A stretch of 64,000 nt of DNA from Mytilus trossulus (Eukaryota). The position numbers and the translations under genes were made by a program. Where the stretch lies: assembly GCF_036588685.1 (NCBI RefSeq), contig NC_086379.1, positions 74,710,001-74,774,000 on the forward strand. Reading direction: 5' to 3'. Below the pieces are notes generated by a model that was not told the DNA's origin, ran no database searches, and saw nothing but the letters and a program-made list of their open reading frames with translations. Every line of letters starts with the position of its first letter. The stretch's first letter is position 1. Below are positions 8,301 to 41,300 of the stretch, in pieces.

Positions 8301-11300
8301 ACAAACATTTAGATATAAAAAAAGAAGATGTGGTATGATTGCCAATGAGATAACTCTCCACAAGAGACCAAATAACACAGAAATTAGTAGCTACAGGTCA
8401 CCGTATGGCCTTCAACAATGAGATGCCTAGTCAGCTGAAAAAGACCAAGAAATCACAAATATGAAGAATAAAAAAATCCAACAAAAAAATAACGGCCTAA
8501 CCAATGAACAAAAAAAAGACAGAGTGGCATGTTCTCTTACAAACTTGTTGCATTGTGTAGTAGAATGATACATTTCCAATGTTCAGTTTCAAGGTCTTGT
8601 TTGTTAAAAGGCAGAAGGTACCAAAACGGGAAGTCATATTTAGTATTAAAAAACACACTGACAACGTCATAACAAAACATAACCAATAAACGATCAAAAG
8701 ACAAAAAAACAAACAGATCATCGAAAAACTGGTTTAGGTTGCCCAATAGAACCCCACAAACATCTCGGGAGGACCTCATGTCAAATGATATCAACGCTCC
8801 GTGGTACTGTGGTATACCAAACCTTCATGTTTATATATACAACAAGCAACTCTATAAAATTAGACCTCAAAATTAAATAGTTCATAAATAGGTTTATTAA
8901 TACACAAATAATGAAATGAATCTGAAACATTCTGTGAAAAATTGTATTGGTTAATCGTGAAAATGTTTTTAGAACTATTCAGAGTCTGAAGTGTCACTTT
9001 CACATTCTTTGAATCCTTCGTATACCCCATCCAACGATGGAAACTCTTTTCTAATGACATTAACTACACAAGCCGGTAGGGTTATTCTGTGTTTCTTGCC
9101 AAGTGGTTGACCTTTCCTGACCCAACACACAAACTGACGATAAGCCATAAGCCTGCTTTGTCTGTTAGTAAGTACGTCTGGAGCTCTCCCTCTATGGCGC
9201 TTGTATCTCAGGAAACTTATGTAGCTTGTTTTCAAGAACAACGGGGTTTAGACTAACTATTCTAAAATCTGTATTTTCAGTGACACATTCACCCAAATTC
9301 ATTTTTTCTTCAAATAGCGTAAATTCGTGGCAGCAGAAACACTCCGCCGGCAATGGCATGACTATACAGTTTTTACATGAACACAAATTGGTGTCAAACT
9401 TGCGAGGATTATTTATAATATCCTGTTGTCTAGAAGTTTCTTCAGCTTCAATTTGTTGGAGTTCTTCTTCAGTGTACTCCGGTTCTAATATGTACCCAAA
9501 TTGACCACACTTGTCAAAATTTGTCTCACCTTAGGAGCTGGATACATCAGAACTTTCACTCTCTGAACTAGACATTTTAGCTTATAGTATAGATTTATTA
9601 AAAAGGCTTATATATCAAACTTTTTTCTTTTTACAAAAACAACCACGCTCCAATCATTAGAAAACAAGGAATTGAGAAAAAGTTAATTGATTAAGTTAAT
9701 TCGACGTCTTTTGATCTTGGCTAAATTTTAGGTAGAAGTTAAAAGTTAGATTAGCTTGTGTGTATTTATAACAATGGTGATTCCATTATTTGAATTCCAG
9801 GTTATCCAAACAAATCTCTGGGTATTCATGTTAGATTTTGAAGGCCTCGGGGTTGAAACCATACAATGATTGAAATAAAATAGAAAGCTCATTGCAAAAT
9901 TTAATCACAAAGAATTAAAAAAAAATCGTTCTTATTCAATTCCGTTCAAATAAGACAAAGTTGGCCTTTCAATTTTCTGTCAACATTTTTGATATTCTCG
10001 TTCAAATAGCTGAAGAATTAGTACGTGGTGAGAATTTAATTATTTTGATAAGGACGTTTCTTCCTGAATATTTTGCTTTGAACGACCCAATTATATAACT
10101 GCATTTGGTAATTACTATCTATTTCAAAAATTGAAGGTCACCGATTCTTATTTTTTTTTTTTTAATTCATTTACTCGTGTTTATAAGGACATCATTATTT
10201 ATAACTTTATTCAATTAAATTAATTAAGTATTTCTTATTTTTTTAACCAGAAATATTCAGCGTTAATAATATATTTAATTAAATTGAGCTCATGGAAAAT
10301 ATTAAGATTCCCCCGTTTATCATTCATACGAAATGTTGTTCAAACCTAGAAAAGTGAAACGTGACGGCTTAAATTCACCGAGTAAAGATCAAAAGATACA
10401 AAATGTTAATCTTTTAATTAACTTGAATTTAACCACGCATTCAACAGGTAGTAACTTTATGTATGTGTCAAAGTACAATACACATTGTATTTGCGGGCCG
10501 TATTTGCACACTATGTAAATGTACTAGCAGCACATATTTACTAGACTGACGTAAAAGGTAAAAAGTACAAACATGCATTTTTAAAACACTTTCAGTTATA
10601 TATGTTAGTTCAAAATATTCGTCAGAAAAAAAATTCATAAAAAAATATTTTATACGATTTACTTGTATCACTATAATCATTACAGAAAATATTAAACTAT
10701 AAATCGTACATTCTAATTTCAAGATGAGCGCTGTTCCATCTTTATTATTAGTTGGTTAATAGCTACACCAAACGTCGTCGATGCGCTTTAAATAGAGTTA
10801 TAAGATGATTAACGATTAAGATTTAAAATGAGATTATTTTCACTCCCGGCATGCTTAAAGACTTAAACTACGTCACATAAGTCAGGAAGTTTGAAGAAAT
10901 AAAATTAATAATTCTTAATTTTCTCCTTTATTAGATTTCATTTCAAAATAAAACTTGGTGAATATGTTTTTTATGGTATTATGAACATAATAAAATGAAA
11001 AGTGAAAAATCGAGAATTATCCCTTTAAAAGAAATCACGATTTAAAGTAAAGTTTTCCTCATAAACATTATTTTTCATGTAATATAAAGTAAATGTCTAA
11101 ACCAATGTGAAATACTAGAGCTTATCGTAGAGTCTTTACTCACATTTGCAATCATCTTTGGATGTAGATGCCTCCTGGTCAGTTGTATAACGATCTCCAC
11201 CACATGATAAACATGACGTCTGCCATTTCTGTGGCTGGTATGTACCAAGCGGACATTTCTCACATGTATCGGTACCAAGACGTTTGTATCCAGCCTCACA

Positions 11301-14300
11301 AGCCTCTATAAAGATAAGACATGGTGAAGTATGAACAATTTTACACTTTATGGATGAAAGAGAATTTGGATCTAGCTTTACAGTAAAAAAAAAGACAGGC
11401 ATGCTCAACTGCAAAAGATTTTGTAGCGGGTCATAATAAAAATTTTGAAATGTATTTTTATATGTTCTTTTCATTTTTGTTTGGGAATAAATAAAATCTA
11501 TTGGTCTTTTACTCTGACATTGGTATATCTTTGAGCCTGAAATGGAACTTACTTATGTTACAATCTGTCTGTAGTGTTGCTCCTGTAGCTAAGGTGGTGG
11601 TTCCTGGTGGACAAGCAATACACTTAGATCCCACATTCTTGTAAGTTCCCTCTGGACAGTCTACACAGTCACCACTAGCGGATAATTGTTTCCCAGGTAG
11701 ACATACATCTAAAATGGAAAAAAAAATATTGCAAATTTTTACATTATAAGTACGAGTACTGTATATATGGTTTGCATATTTTACCATAACCATATTGAGA
11801 AGGTATTGTTTAACCTATCATAAATTATCTAGAATAAAAGTGTACCAGTAGTATCTGAACTAACATAACTTAATGGAATAGTGTTTAAGTCTTTCTCTAC
11901 TTGCATCATTTACAATAAGAGTGCACATACTAAAACGTTTCACAAGCTTTATTGATCATGAAGATTTTTGGTTAAAAATCTAAGGATCTAAGGTTTTACA
12001 AAAAATCTCACATAAACTCATTATTATCAATGATCCATGTAAATATTTATCTAGATATAAACTATTTTTCTGTTTATCTCTAAACCACATAATTGACAGG
12101 ACTTTCCCTTACTGTGTTTCCCAAAGCACACCATTTACAGGACTATACCACTATATCTCATTATTATCTTCCTAAACATAACAAGAGCTGGCTGTATTTG
12201 TTCCTCTTGTGTTTTTTCTTAAGGGCATACGATACAGTTTTGATCCTGTATTTACAAGTTCGTGAACATTTGGATATAGGCTATATTTTACCTGATTAAA
12301 TCAAATATGTAATAAAAAATATACCTTTATGTGCTACTTTTTGAGTAAAATGAGTCCGAAATTTTGTATATTTGCTCAAAATTCAGATTTGTGGCGGTAA
12401 TTTCTTTTTCGAAAGAAAGACATAACTTTTTTGTTATAAAAGATAAACACAAATTGTTTTTTGTTAAATAATCGGTAGTTTCTGCATTTTATAAGTATTC
12501 TAAAAAATTAGCATTTTTTATTCAGAAATAACTCATATTTATCAAATGTTCATGAATTGAAGAAAATACGTCATTTTTTGCTGCATGGTTATCAAAATTA
12601 AAAAAAATCCTCTATTTACTGTTTTATAAAATTTGGGTCACATAATCTCCCTGCAAAATGAAACAAATTGCTGTTTTGAAAAATAGGGGTCCATGAACTC
12701 GTTTTCAAATTAGAATAGTTTGAATGATAAAAATCAGTTGAAAAATACATCTTTTCCCAATATGTCACAGTTTGACGTCGCAAAAATAACATTTTACGTT
12801 AGCAACGTCATTACCTCCCATGTAACTGTATCGTATGCCCTTAACACATTTCATACAAAGGACTTTCACATCTTACTTACCATAACAAAAGCTGACTGAT
12901 GTTGTATTTGTTTCCTTTGTGGTTTTCCCCAGCCCACACCAATCACAGACAAACTGTCCTTCCTCCTCCTGGTAGTAGCCTAGACCACAATCTTCACACT
13001 TGGAATCCTCTCTATCATATCTCTGACCAGCTGGACATATAGCTGAAATTATAATAATGTATTTTTCTTCTTTCTAATTAAGAGTACTATTTAGATTACG
13101 ACAATAGATGAATTAAGATCTGTCACCAGTGTTGGAAATCTACCTGAAAATCATAATTGAATAACCAGAATAATCAATCATCATGTTCCTATTCTATTTT
13201 GCTTATAACCAGTTTACATTCAAATATTTGATGTTTAGAAGATTATATCAATATTTGCTTTCCAAATATTATATCAGTTTTAGTTTGTAAACTTACAGTA
13301 ACAAAATGAAGGGTTGTTTAATCCTTCAGTCTCTGTAGTTGATCCATCAGGACACTTTAGACACTGGGTTTGTCCATCACTGGTTGTGTATGTGCCTATA
13401 GGACAACTCTCACAGATCTTTGTCGTAGTATTTAAGAAGGTTCCTGGTCCACACTTAACTAAAAAAATATACCATTATAAATATTCTACATTTGAATAGA
13501 ATTCTTTATATGTCTCACAACATTAGCTAATAATGAGTCTATAAAGTGAACAGCAATGCCTGTGAATGTCAAGAAAAAACCCAGGCATTATTCTTTGCTA
13601 CCAACTAACTAAGACTTGACAACAAGAGTGCACAGGCTGAAATGTCTCGTCTTCTTTACTAATCATTGATATTATGTTGATAGTCCTAAATATAAAGCTT
13701 TATTACAACTGTCACATAAACTCAACATTTAATTAAACATTGATCAATCAACCATGAAAATGAGGTCAAGGTCAGATGAACCATGCCAGGCAGACATGTA
13801 CACCTTACAATCATTCTATACACCAAACATAGTAGACCTATTGCATATAGTATAAGAAAAACAGACCAAAACACAAAAACTTTCAAGAAGAGTTAACTCC
13901 CCTATTTACCACAATATTCTTCAATGCCAGCATCAGTTTTTGCTGCAGTGCTTTAATTCTTAACAAAAGTCAAAGCTTAGTGGATGTGGGACAGCTATTA
14001 TAGATGGCAGTATAAACAGTTTTATCATAGATTTCAGGTGATTTTAGACTTTAAATTGATGTTAAACAAGAAGTAAAAGCAGTTATCTACCCTACTTACC
14101 ACAATATCCATCAATGACAGTTTCAGTATCACCACATACTTCAGTAGATGTCAATTGAAAGCCACTAGTATCTAACTCTCCACCTGGTATTGGACTCTGA
14201 AATAAGAACAGTGAAGATGAGGAAGTCAGTTTTTGTAATGTCAATAATTGAAAATTAATTAGGAACCACATTATTCTCGTTTTTTTTGTTGTTATTGAAA

Positions 14301-17300: not shown

Positions 17301-20300
17301 GGAAGGGGTTTAACAAAAATTGACAAGTAACACACTGTCCACACTAAGGACTATATTCGTGGACAACGAAAATCAAAGGACGATAACTGTGTACTTGGAC
17401 CATATGGTTGATTGTGATATTTCATGAAAGATCAAGTTTTGACTTTGACATGCACCAAGTTACGGCAATATGTCATATGGCTTAAATTTGAGCTTTGGCT
17501 ATTGAAATAAGAAAGTTCCTTAGTGTCACAAAATTGAACTATGGGTAATACTTCTAATCATATTATGCTATTTGAGAAATTTTCAAACTTTTATGTATAT
17601 TTTGTACTTAAATTTCAATGTAAAACTTACATTGAACATAAATGTTGAAACTACAGAACTGTGAATTAGACTCATCATCGATGGCTTCATATATCATCTT
17701 GTATTTACCCCACAGGAAGGTATCTCCTGGAAAAAAAATATCATGGCAAATAATATCAATGTGAAAATAGACTAAGAGGTATCAAAGTTGTCGTCTTACA
17801 ATTCTTACATTGCGAAGAATTCTTTTAATCTGCCTTTTATAATCACACTGGTGTTGTTTATTCATGGCCTTATTTTTATTTTAATAAAAATCAGTTCATT
17901 CATTTATACACCTAGGAAACAAGCACCTTTACAGGGTTAAGTAAGAAAATCTTCATAATTTTTCTGCCTTGAATACTTTACAGGTTTGTTTTGACACTAT
18001 TATATATTGTTGTGTCCCCCTGTACTATTTAAGATAATACAATATGGATTCTTCTTTGAAGTGCAACTATAAAAAATTTGTAAAGCATTTTTCTAATGAA
18101 AGTTGTATGACAGAACAGTGAAAGGTCTTTATGTTCTATCTTAAGTACAAGCATCTTAAATATAAATTTTAGAAAGGGACACATACCAATCTCATTGAAA
18201 TAAGCTGTAAATTTATGCTAAGATACTCTCCACATAACAGGAATGTAGCCTTTAACAACATTGGATTTTAATAAGATTGGGATACTTACCAGACCTATAC
18301 CTTCTGTTAATAGTACTAGCTCCTTTTATAGTTGGTTCTGTCCAGGAAACTGTTATCAATCTCTCTTTGCTATATATATGTATATTTGATGGACAGTTGA
18401 CAATTGATGGGGGTGTCTTTTTAATGCCTATAAGAAAATTGAAAACGGAAACAGGAAGTGTGTCAAAGAGACAACATCTCCACCTGCAAAGAGCAAAAAA
18501 TAGCCGAAGGCCACCTATTGGTCTCAAACACAGTGAGAAAATCTTGCACCAAGTATGGATAAGTATTTATATTTCTGTTATGAACATTGATTTATTTTAC
18601 TTTCTTCTGCTCTTTAAAAAAACACAAATGGTAAAGCTCAGTCATTTACTCAAAATTTCATGTCCAATATCATAGAATTCAGGGTTGATTTTTTTGTCTG
18701 TTTATAGTTGCTCCTCATTTTGAGATGCATTATGGAACAAAACAATGGCTCAACATATCTATTCCATTCCAATGTCAACTTAATTCTTTGCCATGGCATT
18801 GTCAGTTTTTTTTATATATGAGTTTGACTGTCCCTCTGGTATCTTTCACCCCTCTTTTCTATCTTATCATCAGTATTTGGAATCAAGTAACAAGTTTAAT
18901 TCTAATAAATCCTACCTTGTGTGATACAGCTTTTGCCTAATTTTAATAAATCCTACCTTGTGTGATACAGCTTTTGCCTAATTTTAATAAATCCTACCTT
19001 GTGTGATACAGCTTTTGCCTAAAACACAGCCTTCTCTTGATGCATGTGATGGGTAAACAGGTCGCACACCTTTGTGTAAGATAAACTCATTCCATCTAAG
19101 TATAGCTCCTATAAAAACCACTCTAGGCTTGGAATGGATGACAGCTATTTCTGATTCAAAGTCTAAAGCTCGGTTGTAAATATTCAACTGACTGATATAC
19201 CCTTTGAAGCCTTCATTGGTTGACTGTTTTGTGTTTGGTCCTAAGTTGTCACCAATAACTATCCAAATACTGAAATACATTTAGCTAATACAAAGTTCTA
19301 TACATTAGTTAAATATTATAAGAAGCTGCTGAAGACGCCAATCTAATCGGTGAAACTATAAAAAATATAGTATATATACCAATACACATAATTAACAGCG
19401 CCTCAGGTGATGTTTCATAGAGGCTATGCTATGAAACATCACCAGGCGCTATTAATTATGTGTATTAGTATATATACGATATTTTTATGCTTTTACATTT
19501 TTATCACTGATACACAGAGTTAATATGGCTTCTACTAACAAAAGCTCCATTTGGAGTTAATGTGTTTAGAGACTACTTATGTCGACAGTACACCTTTCCG
19601 ATATTGCTAATCGGTGAAACTAGTCGGCATAATAAACTTGCAGTTCACTAAAGCATTGCTGTCAATCATGCCGTATTTTATTAGTTATATATGTACAATA
19701 TAATAAGAAGTGTGGTCTATCATTATTCATGGAATAATAATTTTTTCATGGGTTTTGTGGTACAGGTGAACAAATAATATAAGGGTTCAACAAAGTACAT
19801 TGTACAAATTATTTGCAGGTTTGTTTGTAGACTTTAAATGGCAAATTTAAAAAATTTGTAAGGGTTTCGCGGAACCCAGTGTCTCGCCTACTTTTGCTGT
19901 AAATTGCGGGCTCCACAAAAATGAGGAAAAAATTTTCCTCTTGATACCATCTTATGATTGTAAGAAGCTTCTGTCTAAGTTTGGTAAAAATCTAGGATAG
20001 TTAATTAATCTAATGAATGTTTTGAAAACTTTAACTGCAAACTGTATGTAATGTTAACTTAAAGAAAATCTAAGTCCATTTAAAAATAAAATACAGAAAA
20101 AATGAATTTATCTTTTTACAAAATTTACTTCTGGATACTATTTTATGATCATAAATAAGCTTCTGTCCAAGTTTGGTACACACCCAGGATAGTTTAAGAA
20201 AGTTATTAAAATTCTAAAAAACTTTAACCACAGAGTGAATGTTATGTTTCCCCGCAGAAAAAACTAAGTCTATTTATAAGTAAATTACGGAAAAAATGGA

Positions 20301-23300: not shown

Positions 23301-26300
23301 GTGACTTTGTCTTAGGAATTAAAATTCAGATCAGATATAAAATGTCTGGCTGGCTCAGAAAAATTTTGGAAGCCCTGTTCTGATCACAGATCTCGCTTAT
23401 TGTTTATTTTTTCAAATTCGTGTATCTCCCTTATCATTGTAATGATAACACTTGTAATTTCACTTGTCTATCCCTCATTGGTTTACCGTTTTCATGCTCA
23501 ATAATTTGACCATCCTGTGTGACCCTCACAAAAACTTAACCAATCCCACAGCACACTTAGACCACAATGAGACCCACCTTTTCAAATGGTTAAAGTTTTC
23601 CTGATGCTAACATATGGCACAATATAGAAAATAATACATGGCAAAAACTATAGCAAATCAACCTCATTGATACATCAAATTTCAACCATGGACAGAAAAT
23701 ACTAGAGGTGTTCCAATTAGTATTTTTTTTAAACCAGCTGCAGATAAACAAATTTAAACATCCAATCTAAAGTATACTTACCTAACACTATACAAGGTAA
23801 AGTATATCTGTTTGAAACCATTGACCTGGAACTTAACCCACATACTGATTGTTATGCCACTACCAGTCAGCTGTATGGGGTAAGGCAAGGCAGCATAGCC
23901 ATCACGGGCAGGTAAATAGAACAACAAATCATAGTTTGTGTCTAATTCTACAAAAACATACAAATTTCATATTAAAAAGAATACTCATATTATTTGTATA
24001 AAAAAATTGTAAGGGTTCTTCTGTCTCTCCTGCTTTCTGGAAATACATTTTTACAAAATTTCCTTCTAGATACTAGCTTTTGATCATTAACAAGCTTCTA
24101 TCCCAAGTTTGGTAAAAATCCAGGATAGTTTAAAAAAGTTATTAAAATGACTAAAACTTTAACCACAGAGTAAATATTTGTGGCCACTGCCACTGCTGCA
24201 GACCTGATGATGGAATGAAGGATTGCTATGTCTTGCTTTTTTGACAACATTCGAAGGCTCGACAATCAGTGAATGTAAGTTGTGAGATTTTAATCATGAA
24301 ACCATCATTTTGTTTCAGACAACTCACTTTTGAAATTTGTCATCAAAATAAAAAATAATTTCTGAAGCAATTACACAACCATGAAACTCATTTATCTATT
24401 TATTCAGCAATTATATCATAGGCAAATAAACTTCACCTTTGGGCAAAAACTTTTGAAACAAGTACTAGTGTTAAATAATATAAGCAAAATTTAGACATAC
24501 TTGGTGTATAAATATCACAATCATGGTAACAAATTAAATGTGTGGAATTCCATTCTTCGTAATATTTCCTTTTTACCTATATATGGATAAGATGGGCTAT
24601 TGGGAAGGTTTTGCATTAACCCCATTCCATTTTTGGCATATATCAAGTCAGGCGCTTTGGAACCATAAAATGTTAGTTTAAGTTTTTGACTTCATGTTTG
24701 TATGTGTGTTTTTTTACAGGAGTTTGATGTGTTGGTGTTGTCTGTGACTAAATCAATGGAGTGGGATATACAATCAGTAAAATATATATGTAAAGACCAC
24801 CACTGACAAGGTTCATGTCTTAGGAGAGGCACTGTGACACAAACTTGCTCATATTTATTTGTTTTGATTAAACATAGTTACTGGCATCACATAAATAAAA
24901 ATTTACAAAACTCTGATTTGGAATTACACTTAGAATGATCATATCAAAGGGAATATGTGTATTAAGTAACATAAAGTTTCAAGTTGGTTGGACTTCAATT
25001 ACCACAAAAACTCCCTCGACTAAAAACTTTCACCTGAATCAAGACAGAAGGACGAATGAATAGAACCACAGACCAGAAAACATATCGTAAGGTGGGGCAT
25101 AAAAAACTTCACTTACTGTGGATTCATTAATATTCGTTGGATACCAATTTTCGTGGATTTCATGGGGCAGGAGAACCACAAATTTAAATGTTCAACGAAA
25201 TACAGATTTTCTAAAGAAATGTATGCAGAATTTGCCAAAACAACGAATTCACATATCCACGAATATGCAAGTTTTTATCAATCCATGAAAATCAGTACCC
25301 ACGAAAATAAATGAATCCACAGTACATCATATCTATACATAGACTAACCTCTTTTACAGTATTCACCAGTGAAACCCAGATTACATCTACAGTAATAATC
25401 ATTCACCATGTCTCTACATACAGAAGTACTTACATCATATCTATATATAGACTTACCTCTTGTACAGTATTCACCAGTGAAACCCAGATTACATTTACAG
25501 TAATAATCATTCACCATGTCTCTACATACAGAAGTACTTACATCATATCTATATATAGACTTACCTCTTGTACAGTATTCACCAGTGAAACACAGATTAC
25601 ATTTACAGTAATAATCATTCACCATGTCTCTACATACAGAAGTACTTACATCATATCTATATACAGACTAACCTTTTACAGTATTCACCAGTGAAACCCA
25701 GATTACATTTACAGTAATAATCATTCACCATGTCTCTACATACAGAAGTACTTACATCATATCTATATATAGACTTACCTCTTGTACAGTATTCACCAGT
25801 GAAACCCAGATTACATCTACAGTAATAATCATTCACCATGTCTCTACATACAGAAGTACTTACATCATATCTATATATAGACTTACTTCTTGTACAGTAT
25901 TCACCAGTGAAACCCAGATTATATTTACAGTAATAATCATTCACCATGTCTCTACATATAGAAGTACTTACATCATATCTATATATAGACTTACCTCTTG
26001 TACAGTATTCACCAGTGAAACCCAGATTACATCTGCAGTAATAATCATTCACCATGTCTCTACATACAGAAGTACTTACATCATGTCTATATATAGACTT
26101 ACCTCTTGTACAGTATTCACCAGTGAAACACAGATTACATCTACAGTAATAATCATTCACCATGTCTCTACATACAGAAGTACTTACATCATATCTATAT
26201 ATAGACTAACCTCTTGTACAGTATTCATCAGTGAAACCAAGATTACATTTACAGTAATAATCATTCACCATGTCTCTACATACAGAAGTACTTACATCAT

Positions 26301-29300
26301 GTCTATATATAGACATACCTCTTGTACAGTATTCACCAGTGAAACACAGATTACATCTACAGTAATAATCATTCACCATGTCTCTACATACAGAAGTACT
26401 TACATCATATCTATATATAGACTAACCTCTTGTACAGTATTCACCAGTGAAACCCAGATTACATCTGCAGTAATAATCATTCACCATGTCTCTACATACA
26501 GAAGTACTTACATCATGTATATATATAGACTTACCTCTTGTACAGTATTCACCAGTGAAACACAGATTACATCTACAGTAATAATCATTCACCATGTCTC
26601 TACATACAGAAGTACTTACATCATATCTATATATAGACTAACCTCTTGTACATTATTCACCAGTGAAACCCAGATTACATCTGCAGTAATAATCATTCAC
26701 CATGTCTCTACATACAGAAGTACTTACATCATATCTATATATAGACTAACCTCTTGTACAGTATTCACCAGTGAAACACAGATTACATTTACAGTAATAA
26801 TCATTCACCATGTCTCTACATACAGAAGTACTTACATCATGTCTATATATAGACTTACCTATTGTACAGTATTCACCAGTGAAACCCAGATTACATCTAC
26901 AGTAATAATCATTCACCATGTCTCTACATACAGAAGTACTTACATCATATCTATATATAGACTTACCTCTTGTACAGTATTCACCAGTGAAACCCAGATT
27001 ACATCTGCAGTAACAATCATTCACCATGTCTCTACATACAGAAGTGCTTACATCATATCTATATATAGACTAACCTCTTGTACAGTATTCACCAGTGAAA
27101 CCAAGTTTACATCTACAGTAATAATCATTCACCATGTCTCTACATCTAGAAGTACTTACATCATGTCTATATATAGACTTACCTCTTGTACAGTATTCAC
27201 CAGTGAAACCCAGATTACATCTACAGTAATAATCATTCACCATGTCTCTACATACTGAAGTCACAGGACATATCGCTGATTTACAGTTATCAATGTTGGT
27301 CTCACATTTACCTCCAGAAAACCCTGAAATCATTACCTAAACATGTTAGTACTAACACCAATGTTGTTCTCAGAGGTAACTAAATGAATCTGAAACCAAA
27401 ATCCAAATATGTCAGTAGTACAATTATTGACTAGGTTTGGGGTAACAGCTGTTTTGAGACCAAAGACTAAATTTAACCCTATCCAATATCTGAAGGTAAC
27501 AGTTTTGAGGATCAAACAGTGGCTGTTGATGGACCTGGAGGATCTGTATTGACACGCACACTGTGAACAACCTATATTTTTCTCCTGATTAAACTATGAT
27601 TACCTGATTTTAAAATGAACAATTTATGGTTTCAACACTTGATTCTTTTTGAAACAGTTTCATATCAAATCTAGAGAATTTATCATATCAGTAGTACTTA
27701 TTTTTGTTATTACCTGAATAGGTTTCAGTGTAACTCTCTAGACATAAAAGAATAATTGAACAAAGTACAACATTACATTCAGATAAGATTGATTGATTAA
27801 TTGTTGGTTGCTTTACATCCAGTGGCAAATATTTCATGCATGTTCAGGACGACATTCAGATATAGTTGGGACATGGTCAAAACTATTTTCCAATAATACT
27901 AACCTGATTTACAATTACATTTGAAACCAACACCATCAGCTGATGTTTGACAGGTGCCACCATTCTTACATGTGTCTATATCAGCACAGTGATTGACCAA
28001 TGTCTGACAACCTTTGCCTGTGTAATCTATCAATATAAACAAATAAAATCTTCTAAAAACCTCAGTAGCCAGTTTTTTTATCAATCTTAAAAGCCGTTGA
28101 AGCCAATTTAAAATCAATATTGGAAAATAAGCATCAATTTACCCAAAAAAATAATAATTAAACAAACTCACACATAAAAAAAATCATTACTAATCATTTG
28201 AACCACAAATACTAATAAAAAGCTGTGCAATGAGCGCATTATATGTCTGTCCCCCATTTAACAAGTATTTATGCTTGTTGTTAAAGTATGCATACAAGCT
28301 AATAATTTAAAAATTGTAATTCCGAAAATTTCAAAAAATGAAATAATGGTTCATTTATGTCAAAGAAATTCATTTAAAAATTGGATCATACAAATGATAG
28401 TGATTACACAACATGTTTCCTCAGTTTTTGATGAGCATCAACAATTCATACAGCCATAAACACCTTACATCTCATTGATTAAATGAGTGGAAACCTTACA
28501 TCTAAATTAATTAATTATCCACTTCATTTCTATTCTCAAAATTAGGATAACTTCTTAGTAGTTACAACCATTTTATACTGACCAACATTACAATTACAGT
28601 TTGGTAAAGCAGCATTGTCACACTTCCCTTCATTTATACAGGAATTAACATCACGACACGTATCTAACGAATTATCACAAAGTTTCCCGTATGTTTTCTC
28701 TGGACATCTGTAATCAGAAACAGAATACATCATCATAGGACTGATGTTTCATAAATAAAAGAACAGACTTCAAAATATAGGTTATGAATGTATGCTTTTG
28801 TAATAGTTACAAATGATATTTTAAAAGAGACATTAAAAAGATTTACAAAATGTGCAATAAATGTAATTAAATGGTGAATGTGTCCATTGGACACAGATGA
28901 TGCTCGATTGAAAATCATATAACGTTATAAAGTGACAGAACTGAAGAAATGTTTAAGTGGCACTACCAAAATTTGTACTTGATATGAGTTTTTGGAATTA
29001 ATAATTGCCTATAAGTTTCTTAAAATTTGGTTGAGGCAAACTAAAGCTTGAGAATTGAAACAAAAAATTCAGCAATTTTTCCATCTGTAAAGGGGCATAA
29101 CTCTAGAACAATATAAGTGACATCCCAACAATTCAAATTTGATTGGTATTTTGTGGTAATAAGCATTGTGTATAAGATTCATAACATTTGGTTGAGGCAA
29201 ACAAAAGTTAGAGAATGGAAACCAACTTTGTCAGCTGTAGATGTACAGACATACAAGGTTAAAACTTGAGGCGGGGGCATAAAAATCAAATGTTTAACTT

Positions 29301-32300
29301 ACCTACAATAGAAATCATTGAACAGATTTGAACAATTAGCTGATAACGGGCATGGATTTTTCCTCTCACAGAGGTCAATAATATTTTCACATCTGTTGCC
29401 TGTCCATCCTGTTGGGCAAGAACAAAGAAAATCATTCTGTCCGTCTTGACACGTGCCACCATGTAAACAGGGATTTATGGCACAATCGTCTATGTTTATC
29501 TATAAATAAAAAAAATGAATTTATGTCAACAACCAGCTTTATTAGGTCTCTACTTCAACATTATCTATTATTCCTAACAGTAATATTCTAACTGAAAAAT
29601 AAAAAAATGTTCTTCATTTGTATTTCAAAATATGGTTGACTTATAAGAAAACTATTTTCTCAAATGTTTTATGCCAGATTTAAATTTTTCTTCCCAAGAT
29701 GATAATTTTTTAATCATCAATATATGTAGACTGGTTCCTCTCACAAAGTTTGCAGCTATTTTCTTTTGTTTCTGTTACAATGACATGGAATCCATGTCAT
29801 ACAGTATTTCTCTATTAGTGAATAAATGAACATAAAACTATATCAGTTTCACACAGAAATGAAGACAATTTGAGAGTTTTATAGCCTTGGAAAAAGAAAA
29901 AAGGCATCAGAAAAATTTTCTTTTTCTTCTAATCCAATTATAGAAATGCACTTAATGTGCAATATATACTTCATTTTACTATATTTTGAGGGAACGTACA
30001 GAACAATTACTTCCTGTGAACCCATCAAAGCATTGGCAGGAGTACGTGTTGACCCCATCAATACAGGTTCCTCTATTAGAGCAGGCTCCAGAGTAACAGT
30101 CAGGTTTATTGTTCTGACAGATGCTACCTGTAAACAAAAACCATCATTATATATACAGCAAAACCTGTATAAACCCACCGGCTACGGGACTACGAAAAAG
30201 GGCCCGTTTGGACAGTGAGCTGGTTTATTCAGGTTTCTGTTTTGAGATGAAGTAAATGACCTTGTGATGTCCAATATTTTGCATGTAAAAGTACTCTCTG
30301 ATTGTAAATTATATCTGATATATTAAAATACTTTCACTTTGTTTTTCATTGTTTGAATTTGCATCATAATGCTGGCGTTGTTTGGGTTGTGAGACAAGAG
30401 TTTTGATTTACTTTGAGATTTAAATTTGTTTATCCAAGTTACAACGTAAGTTCAATCCGAGATATATTCGTTGTATTTGTTTAATTAACACATTTATAAT
30501 GTTTAAATAAATAATACAGCTCACTACTGTACGATTGTAAGTTCACAGTTTAACACCTGACTAATTGATTATCCTGAAAAGCCATATTGTATAAACAAAT
30601 ATGTTTTGATTGCATATCGATCATTGAAATTAATTAGACAAACCAGTTTTGACAGGTAATAATTAATGTAATAAAAGACTTCACAATTAGACTGGAATTC
30701 AGAATACACAGGGTACAAAGGGTATTTAACAAAGTCTTTGAATGGAAAAAATGAGACTTTCATTTCAGCCAGAATGGACAGGAATGGGTTTATTCAGGGT
30801 TGGGTTTAGTCAGGTTTGACTACTTATTTTTGCAGGGTATTTATTCAGGGATCTCCATGGCCTGTTTAACGATGGCGCCCCGCCATCGTTCAAATGTATT
30901 GCGCCATCGTCAAATGACTCGCGCCATCGTTAAATTGGCTTGCGCCATCATTAAACTGTCTTCCGCCATCGTTCAAAACTTCATCGTTTTTTGTAGCCCG
31001 ACGCCATTTTTTTTATCAATTATAATCAAATGCATGTAATTGCATAACCCTTAGGCTTTTTATGTTATAATCCAATACAGTTCTAACGCCTGAGGGATAT
31101 CCGGATTAGGATCGCTAATCACTTGTACCTGAGCTTGTACAGGTAGATTGCCCAAACCCTACCCAAGGTTGAGACAGTGGGTAGGTAGGTAGGCATTTTC
31201 TTTTTTTTTTTCAAAAAAAGAAATTTAAGTATCAGATGTTTATTAGTCTTCATGTCTATTTGATTAAAAAAAAACTTCTTCAAATCAGGACAATAAAAGA
31301 ATTTGAATAGGCAGCTTTTTTCTGGGTAGGTAGCGTTTGGGCAAACAAACCTATTTTTTATTTTGGCCCCAGACAGGAGAATACTATCTGAGGATAGACG
31401 ACCAATTGTCGAATTAATCAACTTAGTTTCAGCAAATGATTATGATAATTTAGATTAAATAAATTAATTAATAATCCAGTGACAAAGAAAATAGTTTAAC
31501 AAGTCGAACACGTGCTTTATTTTGACTTACGCAATCAGCATCCCCCTTTTTAAGAAGTACAAAATAAGACGCAAAACAGTAAATATTATTTCATCGCAAA
31601 TAACTCGAGTACTGCTGTAACGATAATTTAAAATTACTTTAAAAGTTTAAAAGGAAAAACTTAATTAAATATTTCCTGTAAAGAAATATCGTATCGTAAT
31701 TCCGAATTCATTTCGTATATTACAATCAAATTGATACATCCGCGTTTCCGGTTTCTATTCAGACTCGAAAGATGCATGTTGCACAGCATCAATTTGCCAG
31801 ATAAAGTCATTAAAAACCTCTTCGTTTGTCAACGTTTGCTTTACATATCTCTTTAACCTTTTACATAACCCGTACGAATCGTTTTGTTGGTGCTGCAAAT
31901 CAGCCATACCGGTAATGGGTTCTGAATTTGACAGTGTCCATGAAAAATAAGTTCCACATGATGGCACATCATATGATTTTTAACCGCCATGAAAATTACT
32001 AAAAATACAAGAAATCTACACGGGGACCTTCATGACAGCTTTTGGTCATTCTCGACTAAGGGGGGACCATGAAGACTTGGCTTTTGAATGGTTAAAAACA
32101 GCAATAAATGAAAATATTGATACTTCTAATTCTATAATGAAAATTCAAATAAATATAATTTAAATAAGCAATGAATTAGCATGTTCACCATTCCTTGTAT
32201 GGAGGGATAAAATACTTCCGATCGCGCTACACTGTACAGCGTAGACACGGTTTGTAATGGTGAGAGTTCCTCCATGGTTCAATTTTCATCCATGGAGATC

Positions 32301-35300
32301 CCTGTTATTTAAGACTTGAATGCTTCTTTTTGTAACTTCATTGGGGTGTAAAAGCGTTGACAGAAGTACATTTTGTATGAAGTGTGAAGTGCTTCATTCT
32401 AAAAATCATGGTCAACGCTTTTACAACCCTATGACGTTACAAAAAGAAGCATTAAATACTTATAATTACATTTTTTTAGCTAGGATCATGAAAACACGAA
32501 TTTTATATTAATTTTTTATTTGATTCACATGTGCACTTTATTGTGGGACCTCCTGTTATCATAAATGAAAAGTTTTATTGAGTAATGCAATTGCTTAAGG
32601 AATAACATGTGATTTGCAGTTAGCCAATCATAATAATGTATTATAGTGAAACATACATCTAATGTAATTAATTTCATGTACATGTCAGTAGTTATAATTA
32701 TGAGGGCAGAAATGTCTTGTATTGTCAAGCACCTGACATCTCGTTTTGTACCTACCTTTAGAGTAAATTTTTAACAAATACATTATTGTCATTTGTCAAG
32801 CGAGGTACCCTATTACTACCCTTTTATATACACTTTAAAATAAATAAGAGCAAATAAAATACCTTGAAGTGAAATCTGTTTTGATTGATTTCCTACATAC
32901 CTGTGTATCCCTCTGGACAGTCACATTCATGGCCATTCAGTATATCTCTGCAGTTTCCTCCATTCAGACATTGGTTAACAGATGGACAGTCATCAATGTT
33001 ATGTTCACACAGGGAACCAGTATAACCAGGTTTACAGTTACAGCGGAATCCACCAGCTTGATTAAAGCATGTAGCTCCATTCTGACATGGACTATCATTA
33101 TAATCACAGTATAAAAGGTCTGTACATAGTCTTCCCTTGAAAACTGCAAACAGAAATTTATAATGAATCATGTGTCTGAAGACATAATTAGCCAAGGTTT
33201 ATGCATTTACCATCTTATTATAATATATACATTTCAAGTTTCTCAAACAAGTTCAATCAATTTAAAAGAAGTGAATAGGAAAACATTCAAAATATAAAGT
33301 CTTAGAAGACAATAAATATAATAAAAAAATAAATAACAATTCAGATATAAATTACCATAATACTTTACTCTTTTTCTTTAATGTCGACTGACATATGATA
33401 AATCTTTTAAACTGCGTATTATTTACAACAGAAAGAGTTTGATTTTTACACTGATCATGTGATATGTCACATGAGTATTAACTTACCTTTATTAGCACTA
33501 CATCTGTACCGTACTTCATAATCCTCACATGGATTCTTGGGATTACTCTCACATTTCAAACCCTCTATACCACAAGTCAATGAAAACGTATCTCCTGTCT
33601 CATAGTGATATGTCAGAGTCTTATTAAACACACGACACTCTGCTCCAACAGGCTTTGTTCCTCCACATATAGCCATACCATACTAAACAAAACAAAAATT
33701 ACAATCCACATTTTTACTGATTAATGGTTATAAATAATGTCTCCTTAATAAAGAAGTGTTAAATACACATGCAAAAACGTTTTTAAGGGAGATTATAGTA
33801 TCTATGGAATAAAGAATTTGATTTTGAAAGGATTGTTTCTCAGGTTTGATTTTTTACTCTGCTACATCCACATAAGTTACCTTGGTAAAGTTAAATTCAA
33901 ATCTATATAACTACGATAGACAATGGATTTTTTCCCCCTGAATTCAAAGCTTCAAAAGGGTATTATAATCATGAATTGTCTATATGAACATTTGCACAGT
34001 TTTATGTATGGTTGCTTTGTTAAATCAAGTACATTATACCTTTCCTGTAAGTGTTTTTATTCTCTCTTTATCACCCTTGTCTTTACCTGGACTGTCAGTG
34101 TTAAACCATGGAGTGTAGAAATCATCTGTAATTAATATGCAAAGTGAATATGGAAGTTATCTGAGGGACATTTTAATTCATCTCTGAAAAACATTTTGAT
34201 TGATCTCTTAAAGACATTTTACAAGTTTCCTTAAAGAAATTTTTGATATTTCTCTGAAGGTCTTTTTGGAAATTCTTTGAAAAACATTTTGAAAATTCTC
34301 TGGAGGACATTTTGGAAGTTCTCTGAAAAACATTTTGAAAACTCTCTGAAGCAGCTTAGGTGAGGGACATTTTGGAAATTCTTTGAAAAACATTTTGAAA
34401 ATTCTCTGGAGGACAATTTGGAAGTTCTCATAAATGACATTATGAAGTTCTCATAAAGGACATTATGAAGTTCTCATAAAGGACATTATGAAGTTCTTTG
34501 AAGGACATTTTGAAGTTCTCTGTACAACATTCTGAAAGTTCTCTGAACTAAGTTTTGGAAGTTCTCTGACAGACATTTGTTTTTTCTCTGAAGGACATTT
34601 TGGGAGTTCTCTGAAGGACATATTAAAAGTTCTCTGAAGAAAACTTTGAAAGTTTCTGAAAGACATTTGTTTTTTTTCTGAAGGTCATTTTGAAAGTTCT
34701 GGGAAAGACATTTGGTTTTTCTCTGAAGGACATTTTGGAAGTTTTCTGAAGGACATATTGAAAGTTCTCTGAAAAACACTTTGAAAGTTCTTGGAAAGAC
34801 ATTTGGGTTTCTCTAAAGGGCATTTTTGTTGTTCTATGGTGGACATTTTGGAAGAACTCTAAAGGACCTCTTGATTTAAATCCTCTCAGTTTCATACTTT
34901 TTGCTTCCAAATTCATTTTCAAGTGAACCTGATAGTTATCCCACACACAGTAATTGTGCCTAGAAAAATGTCTCAATGAGATATTCCATGATTTATTATT
35001 TGTATTTTCACACATATATATTTAAAATAAAGTATCAGTACACATTTTAGAATTTTTACATATACATACCTACAGGTCTGATACAACGATGAACATAAAA
35101 GTCATAGCTTGAGTTTGAAGACATCCCTACACCAATCAAAGAGCTGTTAAATATGTAGCAAATTTTATCAGTTGGTTGGTAAACAAACCCCTGACAACTA
35201 CTTGATGCATTATCACATGTAGATCTGCATTCACTGGCTGTGTAATTTTCATTAGTCGAATCTGCCCCTTCTAGTGACACTGATGGAAGAGTATTCACAT

Positions 35301-38300
35301 GTAGTTTGAAGTCACAAAATTCACCTGTAAAAAAAATCATAAGTAAAATTATATGTTGAAAAAAAAATGGAAAATTGACCAAACAGTTTGCATGTTTATC
35401 GTTAAGGCATTCATATTTGATGTGTAAACATTTTTTTATATCTATCCCTCAGGTATTTTATACTAATGATGCCCAATAATACAATTAGTTCTATACAAAG
35501 TTCAGGCTTATTTCCAAAATTGAAGAACAAATTCATTAAGTGATTCTTACTAAGCTTTCACATATTTTATGTTTACAAGCATTCAATACATATATACAAG
35601 TCTATTTAGGAAACTGCTGACACAAATGTTATATAAACCATATTTGGAAAACAAGAATGTGTCCAAAGTACACAGATGCCCAATCCACACTATTATTTTC
35701 TATGTTGAGTGGACTGTGAAGCTGGGGGTAAAAACTCTAATTTGGCATTAACATTAGAAAGATCAAAGGAAACATGTATACTAAGTTTCAAGTTGAATGG
35801 ACTTTAACTTCACAAGAATTGTTGTTTACACCTTATTTGTTCTATATAAATATTAAGTCTCATTGGCAATCTTACCACATTTATTTTTTATAATAAAGCA
35901 CAAATACAGCCTAATTAAGGAATGACTGTAATATATTTTCTGTCTATGAAAAAATAACATAACAAATTTGGTGCACACTGAATAACGCATGTAGCGGATT
36001 ATTTAACAGTGTGCACCACATTTTTTATGTTATTTTGAATAGACAGAAAAATATTACAGTAATTTCTTATAATTTAATTCTAAATTCCATTTTAAACCGT
36101 AGAAAACTATGAAAAACGTTGACGACATGACTAAATTATGTCTATGGGCAGATAACAAAATAACGTCAGCCAATCAAAAGACATGTTACATCCAAAATTA
36201 AATGTCTATAAACTAAACTCCAAAAATAACATAGACCTTCACAATGGACAAGCTGTAGGGTTCAGTCCTCTAACCATCTATATACATCAATGATACTAAC
36301 CATTAGAATGCCTTCATAATTACTGTCACAAGATAGCCCTGCATTTCAAACATGTATAGGTGACTGTTATTTAGACAACACATCTACCATTGCACACTAA
36401 TACTCACCATAAGACACACCTTCGTTGCAGACACATCTGTAGGAGTCTGTTCTATAATCATCTACACATGTTCCACCCTTACAGTCAACACATGGACTGG
36501 TACGAACTTCACATCGGGTACCAGAATAACCATTCTTACATTGACAGAAATATCCATTTACTCTGTCATCACATGTTGCATCATTATAACATGGATTAGA
36601 ATCACATTCCTCTGGAAAAAAAATAACATGTATAAAGTAAACTTAATATGGATCATTGCCAAAGAATATAATGCCATTCTATAAAAGCAATTCTCATTTT
36701 CACCCAAATATAAGAAATAATGTCCCATTTTTACAATTAACACTAGAATATATACAGATAATTTTATAGTCTCTCATGTCTGAGAAAGATTACAGAAATA
36801 AATGCAAACAATTTTACTCCCATAGTAAACTGCTCTATCAAATCCAAATTTGAATATATGATAATGAGGATACAGGAATTGGACAGTCTTCATGATTAAC
36901 CTCAAATTGCTTGTTTATTCAAGTTATTCAAACGAACAACGAGATGCTCTTCAAAGTTCATAAATTCTATTCCTACATAACTTTCTATATATATGTGGGT
37001 TGAATATTTATTATATTGGGCTTTTAAACTTTATTTCAATTTCCAAACATTTAAACAAAATAGGAGTTACATCATTATATCGAGGACCATGTGTCTCATT
37101 TCAAATAGTATAGTACTTACCGATATCAGTTTCACAATCAACCCCAGTAAAACCAGGCAGACAGACACATTTCCTCCGAACATTGTTGTAATTTTCACAC
37201 TTAGCCTTATTGAGGCATGGTTTTACTTCACATATATCTGTTTGCATTTCACAGCTGAAATGTACAAAGTTAAATGCAATATGTACAGATTTTCTAAAAA
37301 AAAAACCACAGCCATGGTAGTAAAACAATTATAATATTTTGACCATTTGTTCATTTATAATGATAAATGCAGACTTATTTTCATCAGCTTTTTGGAAGGT
37401 CAACATTTGAATTTTCAAGTCTTGCATACAAAGTTAACATTCGACTGAAATTCATGTCATTAAAGTAATTTCATAAGTAATGTATTTAAAACAAAAAGGT
37501 TATTTATGCATCTAGGTGAGTATCACAATAATAAGAGTTCACATGCTAATATCACATACATGTATCTTAATACAGATTTTCCTGAAATCGCAATAAATAA
37601 CCTCATATTTTTGTCCTTTCTTAAATAATTTCATATCAATTAACCTCAGATTGTTGTTCTTTTAATAAAAAAAAGTCACACTAATAAATACAAGTAATAA
37701 TTTCTGAATTTACACAAGTCTGAAATCTGCTAATATCTTACTTTGGTCCTTTGTATTTAACAGGACATATACAGGTAAAAGAGTTGACCTGGTTTATACA
37801 AACTCCCCCATTTATACATGTACTATTCATACATTCAGTATTATCATCTATTTCACATCTTTCTCCAGAGGTTCCTGTTTAAATAAAACAAAAACAAACA
37901 TAAAGTAGTAGATATTTTCACATCTATAAAAATATTTAAAATGATTCAACAGAACAAAATCAAAATCAAATGTACAAGTGAGACACAAATTAGTGAAGGA
38001 AGAAGGGGGGCATTAGTATGTGGGTATTATCAAACACATGCAATTTACAAATAAATATTAGCATGAGAGTTAGTGTCCATACAGAAAAACTTCTTGTTTC
38101 AATTTTGAATAACCTCATTAATAGAGTTGATATAAATTGTAAATCTTTATTTGAAAAAGTCAAATGTTTAAATATCAATTAAAATAACAATAAATAAGAA
38201 CCTCATTATCAAATACATGTGTAAAATCCACTAATAGCGTGATACCTTTTTTGGTTTACTCGACACAAGGACAAAGACATGTTTTTTTTTGTTAAGTCAC

Positions 38301-41300
38301 CATTAGGAAAACATGAATATTAGTTCACTCACCAAGAGGGCAATAACATGTACATTAGATTAACTCACCATTTGGAAAAAGATATACAAGTTTAAAAACA
38401 ACTAAAACAAAGACTTGTACATTTGTTTACTCACCATTAAGACAATCACAAGTATAATTAGTGGGTGTACTTGTACATGTGCCATTATTGTAACATGGCT
38501 CTGATAAACAGTGATTAACTTCTATCTCACAGTGTCTCCCATAGTATCCTGTAAAAATATTAGAGGTATAGCTTTTAGTTTTATTTCATTGGAATTTTCA
38601 TAAATTCATAAAAAAAAGACTACCACCTCTCCAGTAGTAGGGGTTTAATTATAAATGCAAGGTTATTTAAAATTAACTTTAAGCCTAGGTTCTAAAGACA
38701 CATTAGCATCAACCCAAACCCGCTGCTTGATTGTATTTATCGCCAGATCAAAATAAATAGACTGTTTGTAAAAAATCTGTTGTGTTCAAGTTTTGACACT
38801 TTCAAACTATCCAAAGAAGGGTAACTCTAACTCATTGACTTGCAAAATATGTATTGGACACAATTTTATTCCAACATTCAGCTTAGAAAGGTGGAGGTTT
38901 AATATGTAAGCTTCATTGGTGAAATATAAACAATATATTTAATAGATTTGTAACAAGTTATGTATTTCTAAAACGAAAAGTGATCGATACATCTCCACCC
39001 GTACGACAGTAGCGGTACTGAGAACAGTACTTATAATAATCATTTGGACTTTTCTTCGAATTGCTTATAATGGATAACTAAAAATTTAAATTAGCAGGAG
39101 TCCGGTTCAGAAATAGGTTAAGCATGTTATTTGTGTTGCTCATAAATTAGTCTCCTGTGAAATGTTTGGAGTACTAGTTATTATTCATATCTATATGTAT
39201 TGCAACCATGTTGTATTTCGTCGCTGGGCTTCAAAAATGTTGTCAAGAAAAAAATATCTCACAAACAGGCTTTGAAAATTTTTGCAAAATGCATGCTTCC
39301 AAAATGTCGTATGTGAACTTGAACATTTTTGTAAATGGCAGTGAAATAAAAATTTTGACATTTCTGGATTATCCAAGAACTTAAATTATTTTCAAAGAAA
39401 TAAAGAAATGTACAATTATTTTTTCCCAAAGCCATTCTACAACGATTTTCAAGTTTTCATACAACATTTTGGAAGCAAACTTAACAAACAACTGACATTG
39501 GCAATTTTGTAATATGTCTTATTTCACACATTTTGATTGGTCTAACTGCATGCTATTTTGTAATACCAAAGATTTCCTCCCGCCAATACCATTGGTGTCA
39601 AAAAATATTTTCAGCCAAACTAGAGGCTCTAAAGAGCCTGTGTCGCTCACCTTGGTCTTTGTGAATATTAACCCTTTCATCCCCGACGTTGCTTTGAGGC
39701 ATCGCCTGACGTTGGCCCGACGTTGCTTCAACGCATCGCCTGACGTTGGCCCAACGATGCTTTGAGGCATAATTTCTCGGTATTTTTTTAAATCAGTTTC
39801 ATAACGAAATGGCGGGGCGCATGCAAGGGAAAATGGACGTAGTCATTGAACGTATTTTGAAATTTGTTTTTATGCTTTGTTCAGTGTAATCGTACTGTTT
39901 AAAATAAGAAAAATACTGTTGAAACGTCATTCTTAAAGGGAAGAAATTAATGGCGTCCTCCGTGGTGCAACATGTGTTCAACAGCTGTTTATTTCAATGT
40001 TTTACGTTTTGAAAAAGGCCTTCTCGGTGAAAATTGTAAATGTCAATTCCGTGACCTCATTTGCGATCATTTGCATATCAATGCGGATATGCAGGGGTGA
40101 TATAATCCAACATTTTGTTGAAAGTTGTCGTTTTCAGATTCGGTTGCGCTAACCTTATTGCTGCTTCGTTACTTCTTTATTTATTTCTGTAAATGGCCAT
40201 GACACATTTATTTAGTCCAAAAATGAGACCGCATGCAAGTCTCCATTTTTGTTTTGTTTTTCAATTCTATTATATAAATATATTGACCTTTAAAGTTGGC
40301 CTTCAGTTGACCAATAAAAACGGGGATTCCGTTTCTTACTGTCGTAATGTCATGTGAGATGTCATGTGCTTGCGGTAAAAATAATGTGTATTTTTCGAAG
40401 CTATGAACTCATTTATATAATTATATATATATACGATTTTATTTTTTTAATAAATCGTTTGAAACGTAAAATAAAGTGTGAAAAAAACATCCTGTCTTGA
40501 AGGTTAATCAGAGTCCAAATTAAAAACATGTGTCGATGTTCCATCTAACACGTGTTTTCCTGGTGGTCGAGGATTCTTGGAACTCATTTGCATATTATTA
40601 CGATTTTATATTTTCACAAATGATAGATAATAACACGCGTATGTGTTATAAAAAGAGGCAAACCGAGTATGTGTCACATAGAAGATTTGTTGTTCTTCAA
40701 AATTTTCTAATAAATAAATACTCAACAACTGTTTTCGCAATTACTTGCATTGAACGTTGGAATGTGTATTCGCATTTCATTTTATTTTTAACTCTGACCT
40801 TATATCATCCAATTAAAACTCGGGGTTCCCTTCTTAATACATGTGATATATCATGTGATTCTAATATGTCGTCTGTAAACAAATAATAAAATTGAAATGT
40901 CCGATTCTTCAGACGAGGAATTCTTCGGTTTTGAAGCCGATGAAATTCAGCAGGCTGCTCAACGGTACGAGCAATTATTAATAGATCAAGGAATAGGTGA
41001 TGATTTTGAATTCTATTCTTCAGGGAACGAGTCCGAGGACTCGGAAACAGAACCTATCGATGATACCATTCCTATTTATAATATCAATGACCAAGTAGTC
41101 CCAGATATAGACAATGTTGGAAACAACTGGCATAACAATTTTGATATATATGAAAGGGGTTTACCTCATTTATTTCAACCTAGAGGTCCAGATGGAAGGG
41201 CAACCGGCCCAGCTACTATTTTAGCTGCCGATAAGGGTCCAATTGATTTCTTCAAATTGTTTTTGAATGACATATTATTTGAACATATAATTAATGAAAC

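Follow-up and report, generated by a model that had tools for sequence, protein, structure and literature searches.

A 64,000-nucleotide window of the Mytilus trossulus genome (NC_086379.1, positions 74,710,001 to 74,774,000; coordinates below are those of the window) holds on its minus strand a multidomain protein gene, one intron of which begins with a tandem array of 18 units. The first unit lies across the boundary between the intron and an exon for an EGF domain and carries the predicted authentic donor splice site; the other units repeat that site within the intron. Our analysis indicates that the array is most probably an intronic minisatellite, the 17 copies beyond the authentic donor being silent or nearly so. 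Arrays of this form, with a boundary-spanning first unit, are known as donor-reiterating minisatellites or, in amphioxus, as mirages. The Mytilus array is a real and clean example of this known kind of repeat, in a host group that is new as far as our searches reach: a donor-reiterating repeat in a bivalve was found neither in the titles nor in the opening lines of abstracts returned by literature searches, which is a weak negative.

Anatomy of the Array

Tandem Repeats Finder places the array at 25323-27261 (minus strand) with a period of 108, 18.0 copies and 95% matches; mean pairwise identity is 95.6%. In each unit, 73 nt from the end of the EGF exon are followed by 35 nt of intron-side sequence. 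Seventeen units are 108 bp long; unit 15 (25638-25743) has a 2-bp deletion, loses the frame and, because it is only 106 bp long, puts donors 15-18 out of frame. The authentic EGF exon (27183-27323, 141 nt, phase 1-1), supported by an open 39-exon gene model and by homology, contributes its 3′ half as unit 1 and ends at the predicted authentic donor, GAG/GTAAGT (donor 1, 27177-27182), which has a position weight matrix (PWM) score of 12.3. The array-bearing intron spans 27182-23948 (3235 nt), and its acceptor leads to an exon (23782-23947) that begins a LamG/pentraxin-type domain according to the model, homology and a Laminin_G_3 match (E 0.007). The exon upstream (27904-28026), placed in the gene model and covered in runs guessed to be RNA, also encodes EGF sequence and has a GTTAGT donor at 27903.

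GT is kept at the donor of all 18 units (27182, 27074 and so on to 25348). The sites read GTAAGT in ten units, GTTAGT in seven (2, 5, 6, 8, 10, 15, and 18) and GTATGT in unit 9, and the five variants scored have PWM values of 8.7-12.3. Donor 2 (GAG/GTTAGT, 27069-27074, PWM 8.7) is in frame and would add 36 amino acids; reading through it meets a TAG at 27072-27070. A further set of putative donors is created where units join. The first of these, GAT/GTAAGT (27154-27159, PWM 10.1), is an out-of-frame site 23 nt past donor 1; GTAAGT recurs in this position at 16 of the 17 unit junctions, the last reading GTAAGC. The exon-derived half of unit 6 contains an additional TAA (26653-26655).

The unit consensus is open through 36 codons. 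In silico splicing of each donor to exon 23782-23947 gave open products for donors 1 and 2; the products of donors 3-18 all included the unit-2 stop. These results agree with the original prediction, made from the sequence alone, in the 18-unit array next to the end of the EGF exon, in the mix of donors and in the frame arithmetic (normal protein from donor 1, 36 more residues from donor 2, truncation from the rest). Other parts of it need amendment. The claim that every unit is 108 bp fails for unit 15, and the claim that the units translate open is true of the consensus but of few individual units, 5/18 being intact (full length, no stop and exactly four cysteines). GTTAGT had been said to read as Gly-stop in seven units; this is so in unit 2 but not in unit 15 when read in the exon frame. 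The GTTAGT site at 27903, described as a donor in real use, fits the open gene model, but no RNA joint was seen there. The unit-15 frameshift, the second stop of unit 6, the cysteine gains and losses among units and the junction-made GTAAGT donors had been overlooked.

Host Gene and Predicted Product

Inspection by eye together with scripts placed 39 exons from 61677 to 2181, giving a partial host gene (2181-61677, minus strand) that, with donor 1 used, encodes 2172 residues with no stop. A profile search with exon 19268-18999 returned 53 proteins, and the six long ones that were looked up come from Potamilus, Tegillarca, Nucella, Plakobranchus, Haliotis, and Argonauta. The model aligns collinearly with them, at 41.6% identity over 2008 columns for Potamilus (P0005) and 36% over 2218 for Haliotis (P0020). 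These mollusc proteins (KAK3579233.1, XP_067672504.1, and others) are unnamed or loosely named; collinearity holds over about 2000-2200 residues, including the EGF-LamG junction, at 31-42% identity. The three that were scanned contain LDLa, CUB, Sushi, EGF, HYR, and LamG domains and many Ephrin_rec_like domains. The host gene presumably resembles Drosophila Uninflatable and vertebrate SVEP1.

All seven mollusc homologs compared lack an insertion between the last EGF domain and LamG, and the predicted product of donor 1 is for this reason regarded as the ancestral form. A close-relative protein, whether it has the insert or lacks it, was not found: protein searches gave 0/14, 2/21 (generic EGF proteins), and 1/3 (generic) candidates, which are weak negatives, and metagenome scans gave 0/147 confirmed cases and one match (L001) that had unrelated flanks.

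Donor Strength and Transcript Evidence

By PWM score, donor 1 ranks first, tied with later GAG/GTAAGT copies, followed by the junction site and then donor 2. The real donors of the gene have leave-one-out scores of 0.9-12.6; T/GTAAGT occurs at 7/39 and GTTAGT at 1/39. A working gene would imply a strong preference for the first site, because free competition would produce a frameshift at the first site downstream and stops at several later sites identical to donor 1.

Four of the 24 listed runs (X1, X2, X6, and X16), all of them contigs, in which minor isoforms are dropped, and none on record as RNA, were mapped on 27040-30300, an interval that includes units 1-2 only. The host gene is expressed, since spliced contigs cross upstream exons in two runs guessed to be RNA (X16 record 11 and X6 record 27); contig exon edges agree with the model at 28707, 29303, 29499, and 30000. 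In another contig of a run guessed to be RNA (X16 record 10), 88 other letters precede a stretch covering 27224-27322. X16 record 9 runs unspliced through two successive donors at a depth of 4.6, where the unique part of the exon has 24.7; this would fit pre-mRNA, or DNA from a multi-copy array that had collapsed.

The unit junction is covered in all four runs, which carry three organism labels. Its depth in the DNA runs is 130-230 versus about 10 in unique flanks (X1) and 300-400 versus 20-50 (X2), ratios that differ between the two runs, contig depth being a rough guide and not a copy number. All four runs lack the letters of the window's unit 1/2 junction, and a variant of the unit found in X1, X6, and X16 is absent from X2; unit content thus differs between samples.

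Variation among Units

The units depart from their consensus by 21 distinct substitutions, of which 3 are synonymous, 16 missense, and 2 nonsense, and by the one 2-bp deletion. The synonymous share is 14%, compared with 20-26% under random change (P[≤3 synonymous] = 0.17-0.37), and variants are equally dense in the two parts of the unit, with 14 in the 73 exon-derived nucleotides and 7 in the 35 intron-derived ones. One cysteine is lost in unit 13, and one is gained in six units. Unit variation therefore gives no sign of coding constraint, in a test whose 21 variants give it low power; purifying selection on the repeated frame is not indicated by the synonymous count, the two stops, the frameshift or the few intact units. 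The high identity of the units, the patchwork in which shared variants are scattered among them and the sample-specific letters are all signs of turnover.

In a normal EGF domain, cysteines 1 and 2 pair with cysteines 3 and 4. The sequence that donor 2 would insert matches only positions 11-32 of the 32 in the Pfam EGF model and holds four cysteines, 3-6. Lacking the first two, the predicted 36-residue piece is not a whole EGF domain, nor is it a step in EGF expansion; the array offers neither a six-cysteine unit nor one that forms a symmetric exon behind an acceptor of its own, as a coding tandem expansion of EGF sequence would. The suggestion that the array is a snapshot of EGF-repeat expansion is thus not supported. 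Structure prediction was uninformative because a natural control scored equally low: AlphaFold gave the read-through form a predicted local distance difference test (pLDDT) value of 45.8 and a natural two-EGF exon 45.0.

Origin of the Array

A single tandem duplication probably joined about 26 nt of the intron back to mid-exon; the junction consists of the intron end, three unassigned nucleotides and exon sequence with one change. Unequal crossing-over or conversion would then have raised the number of units and rearranged them, scattering variants, GTTAGT among them, as a patchwork. The array would be tolerated if the most upstream donor wins, through oriented scanning or exon definition, and yields normal mRNA; stray use of downstream sites would mostly give premature stops and removal of the transcript by nonsense-mediated decay (NMD).

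The in-frame unit and its stop-bearing donors need no special explanation of their own. Twelve of the 39 donors of the host gene are open for about 36 nt into the intron and one third of lengths are multiples of three, so an in-frame, open result is expected in roughly 1 of 10 duplications. A stop within a donor is generic: all five phase-2 donors of the gene begin GTAAG and read TAA at once, and GTTAG in phase 1 likewise reads directly into a stop. We infer that both the unit length of 108 bp and the Gly-stop reading arose through coincidence of phase.

Comparison with Known Repeats

Mirages of amphioxus, which are found at donors as well as acceptors, are variable in length and apparently leave splicing undisturbed (PMC3087553, PMC3902484). 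Those described in Adh3, troponin C, the globins BflGb6 and BflGb9, and PGBD5 resemble the Mytilus array in their boundary-spanning duplication, reiterated splice signals and unit turnover, and, as in the host gene, several boundaries of one gene can be affected. The lancelet PGBD5 repeats at a splice site also have a unit of 108 bp, and downstream copies were annotated by a predictor as additional coding sequence (PMC3902484). The Mytilus array differs in its mollusc host, in a longer exon share and in having 18 copies where the globin and PGBD5 mirages, as described there, have 3-7. Length polymorphism and normal splicing have been shown in amphioxus, whereas the evidence for them here is indirect; acceptor cases are reported from amphioxus, but none of the 39 acceptors of the host gene is affected.

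Borensztajn et al. 2006 (PMC1557585) described human minisatellites in which an exon-intron boundary lies within the first unit; the cases below other than F7 are given as cited there. The first donor alone is used in F7 intron 7 (37 bp × 5-9), LMNB2 (100 bp × 10-15), and PDGF intron 4 (81 bp × 16-18); in F7, in-frame pseudo-sites are unused, and selection of the upstream site first was shown. As in the Mytilus array, the authentic donor lies in the first unit with the pseudo-sites downstream, and LMNB2 and PDGF come near it in unit length and copy number. In contrast to these three, the Mytilus units are whole codons with a second, junction-made donor, and first-site use is predicted. The variable number tandem repeats of CBS intron 13 (15-20 repeats) and of the interferon-inducible 6-16 gene have the same anatomy as the array, and in both there is measurable use of the two nearest pseudo-sites (PMC1557585). 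For CBS, the title of a work cited there states that a substitution within the second repeat blocks alternate splicing, a parallel to the weaker donor 2 of the array.

Alternative Explanations

Several points weigh against silent copies. Use of the nearest pseudo-sites in CBS and 6-16 sets a human precedent for leakage, and scanning has been demonstrated in mammalian cells, not in molluscs (PMC1557585). The donor matrix was built from 39 sites of the host gene alone. An RNA joint of 27182 to 23947 was not seen, in an analysis that covered units 1-2 and in which dispersed repeats filled the tables of joints and loose ends. The neutrality test is blind to selection on unit 2 alone, and unit 2 retains its four cysteines. 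The array has also persisted, because its junction is common to the three organism labels.

In one rival explanation, splicing is leaky but unselected: donor 1 dominates, and the +23 site and donor 2 account for a few percent, yielding an NMD-bound product and a form 36 residues longer, with allele structure shifting the dose slightly as in CBS and 6-16. The scores of the two sites lie among those of the gene's real donors, and human repeat length can alter splicing and is associated with it at large scale (PMC10078293). The one listed contig over the junction from a run guessed to be RNA, X16 record 9, is nevertheless unspliced, and F7, LMNB2, and PDGF splice at the first site only. We consider such leakage unlikely.

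Selection might act in two forms. Unit 2 could act as a selected gate, donor 2 producing the half-EGF isoform, the stop capping read-through and alleles of unit 2 shifting the isoform mix; we judge this very unlikely. The broader proposal, that of the original prediction, is that unit order or copy number tunes a mixture of normal, 36-residue-longer and truncated isoforms, with GTTAGT serving as both donor and poison stop, in a snapshot of EGF expansion. Its attractions are the open 36-codon unit, a donor 2 that is in frame, a unit-2 stop that would limit read-through to one added unit, and a GTTAGT site at 27903 that makes this motif a plausible donor in the host gene. But variation among units looks neutral, with the unit-15 frameshift, the unit-6 stop and the cysteine changes, and thus reveals no constraint on the protein; the junction pseudo-donor, out of frame, precedes donor 2 and outscores it; the insert lacks EGF cysteines 1-2 and has no counterpart in the seven homologs; the gene's other donor duplications are mostly out of frame; and a donor that reads as a stop is, as the phase-2 sites show, nothing special. 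The order of units past the second is irrelevant to the protein, because those units are unreachable in frame. Tuning of this kind is therefore very unlikely indeed. Loss of frame, which had been named as part of what would refute it, is already found within the one haplotype of the window.

A mirage-type intron gain, in which an internal AG would make a unit into a symmetric cassette exon of 63 nt, is scarcely credible: the route has been proposed (Ebner et al., PMC3087553), and an in-frame 63-nt AG...GT cassette is present in 3/3 units tested, but the cassette acceptors, with scores of -0.6 to 1.0, fall short of every one of the 39 real acceptors, the weakest of which has 2.6, a rival AG lies 2 nt upstream and out of frame, the cassette holds three cysteines, and the adjoining intron would be 45 nt where the shortest in the gene is 227. 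Assemblies are error-prone at tandem arrays and the exact copy number may be off, but an assembly artefact is almost certainly not the explanation, given the patchwork variants shared among units and a junction covered in four of four independent runs well above unique flanks.

Donor Duplications Elsewhere in the Gene

Besides donor 27182, four other donors of the host gene (18997, 14099, 2180, and 38434) have a local copy downstream, all on the minus strand, making 5/39. A 41-bp repeat of 3.1 copies (18897-19022) spans donor 18997. At the remaining three, a diverged (83%) copy of the exon end and donor lies 190 bp downstream of donor 14099 (13891-14127), donor 2180 with the start of its intron is present in three copies spaced 92 and 116 bp apart (1908-2208), and degenerate copies of donor 38434 have spacings of 66 and 68 bp (38288-38445). 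Two of the seven spacings (108, 41, 92, 116, 190, 66, and 68 bp) are multiples of three.

Local copies were found at 0/39 acceptors of the gene, and the difference from donors has p = 0.055. Compared with intron background, donors are enriched when two big arrays are left out (4.8%; p = 0.037) and not when they are kept (25.8%); compared with decoy GT sites (14/201), p = 0.21. With the ascertained array removed (4/38), p = 0.11 for any copy, 0.003 against a first-copy rate of 1.6%, and 0.08 against decoys. In this post hoc comparison, with the ascertained array included, the result is borderline and at most suggestive that local duplications may arise or survive preferentially at donors in this genome; mirages at acceptors are known.

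Other Features of the Host Gene

Three exons at 33487-35324 (minus strand) with a non-EGF module break the EGF run, and some homologs align with a gap there; from its motifs, the module may be PAN/apple-like and mucin WxxW-like. A degenerate 23-bp minisatellite of about 22 copies (34139-34867) ends just upstream of acceptor 34125 and does not span it. Most of a 10.3-kb intron is taken up by a 50-bp satellite (46463-56201, 195 copies, 93% matches), which touches no exon boundary.

An intronic piggyBac-type element (39668-43616), possibly recent, has TTAA at both ends and imperfect terminal repeats, with an uninterrupted open reading frame (ORF) of 598 aa on the plus strand (40897-42690; Pfam DDE_Tnp_1_7, E 4.5e-88). 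It sits in a dispersed repeat, an empty form of which lies near 60500-60580. A P2RX7_C-like ORF in two frames (8978-9580, minus strand, that of the host gene; Pfam PF20478, E 1e-4 and 1.5e-9) is also intronic and is probably a broken mobile-element gene.

Significance

As read here, the array adds a mollusc case to a known class of repeats, with five donors affected in one gene, and matters little beyond that. It can mislead gene prediction, since an in-frame unit may be taken for added EGF sequence. If unit 2 did tune isoforms, the repeat allele would set the domain content of the protein through splicing. For first-donor preference, the array is a natural test case from outside mammals and chordates.

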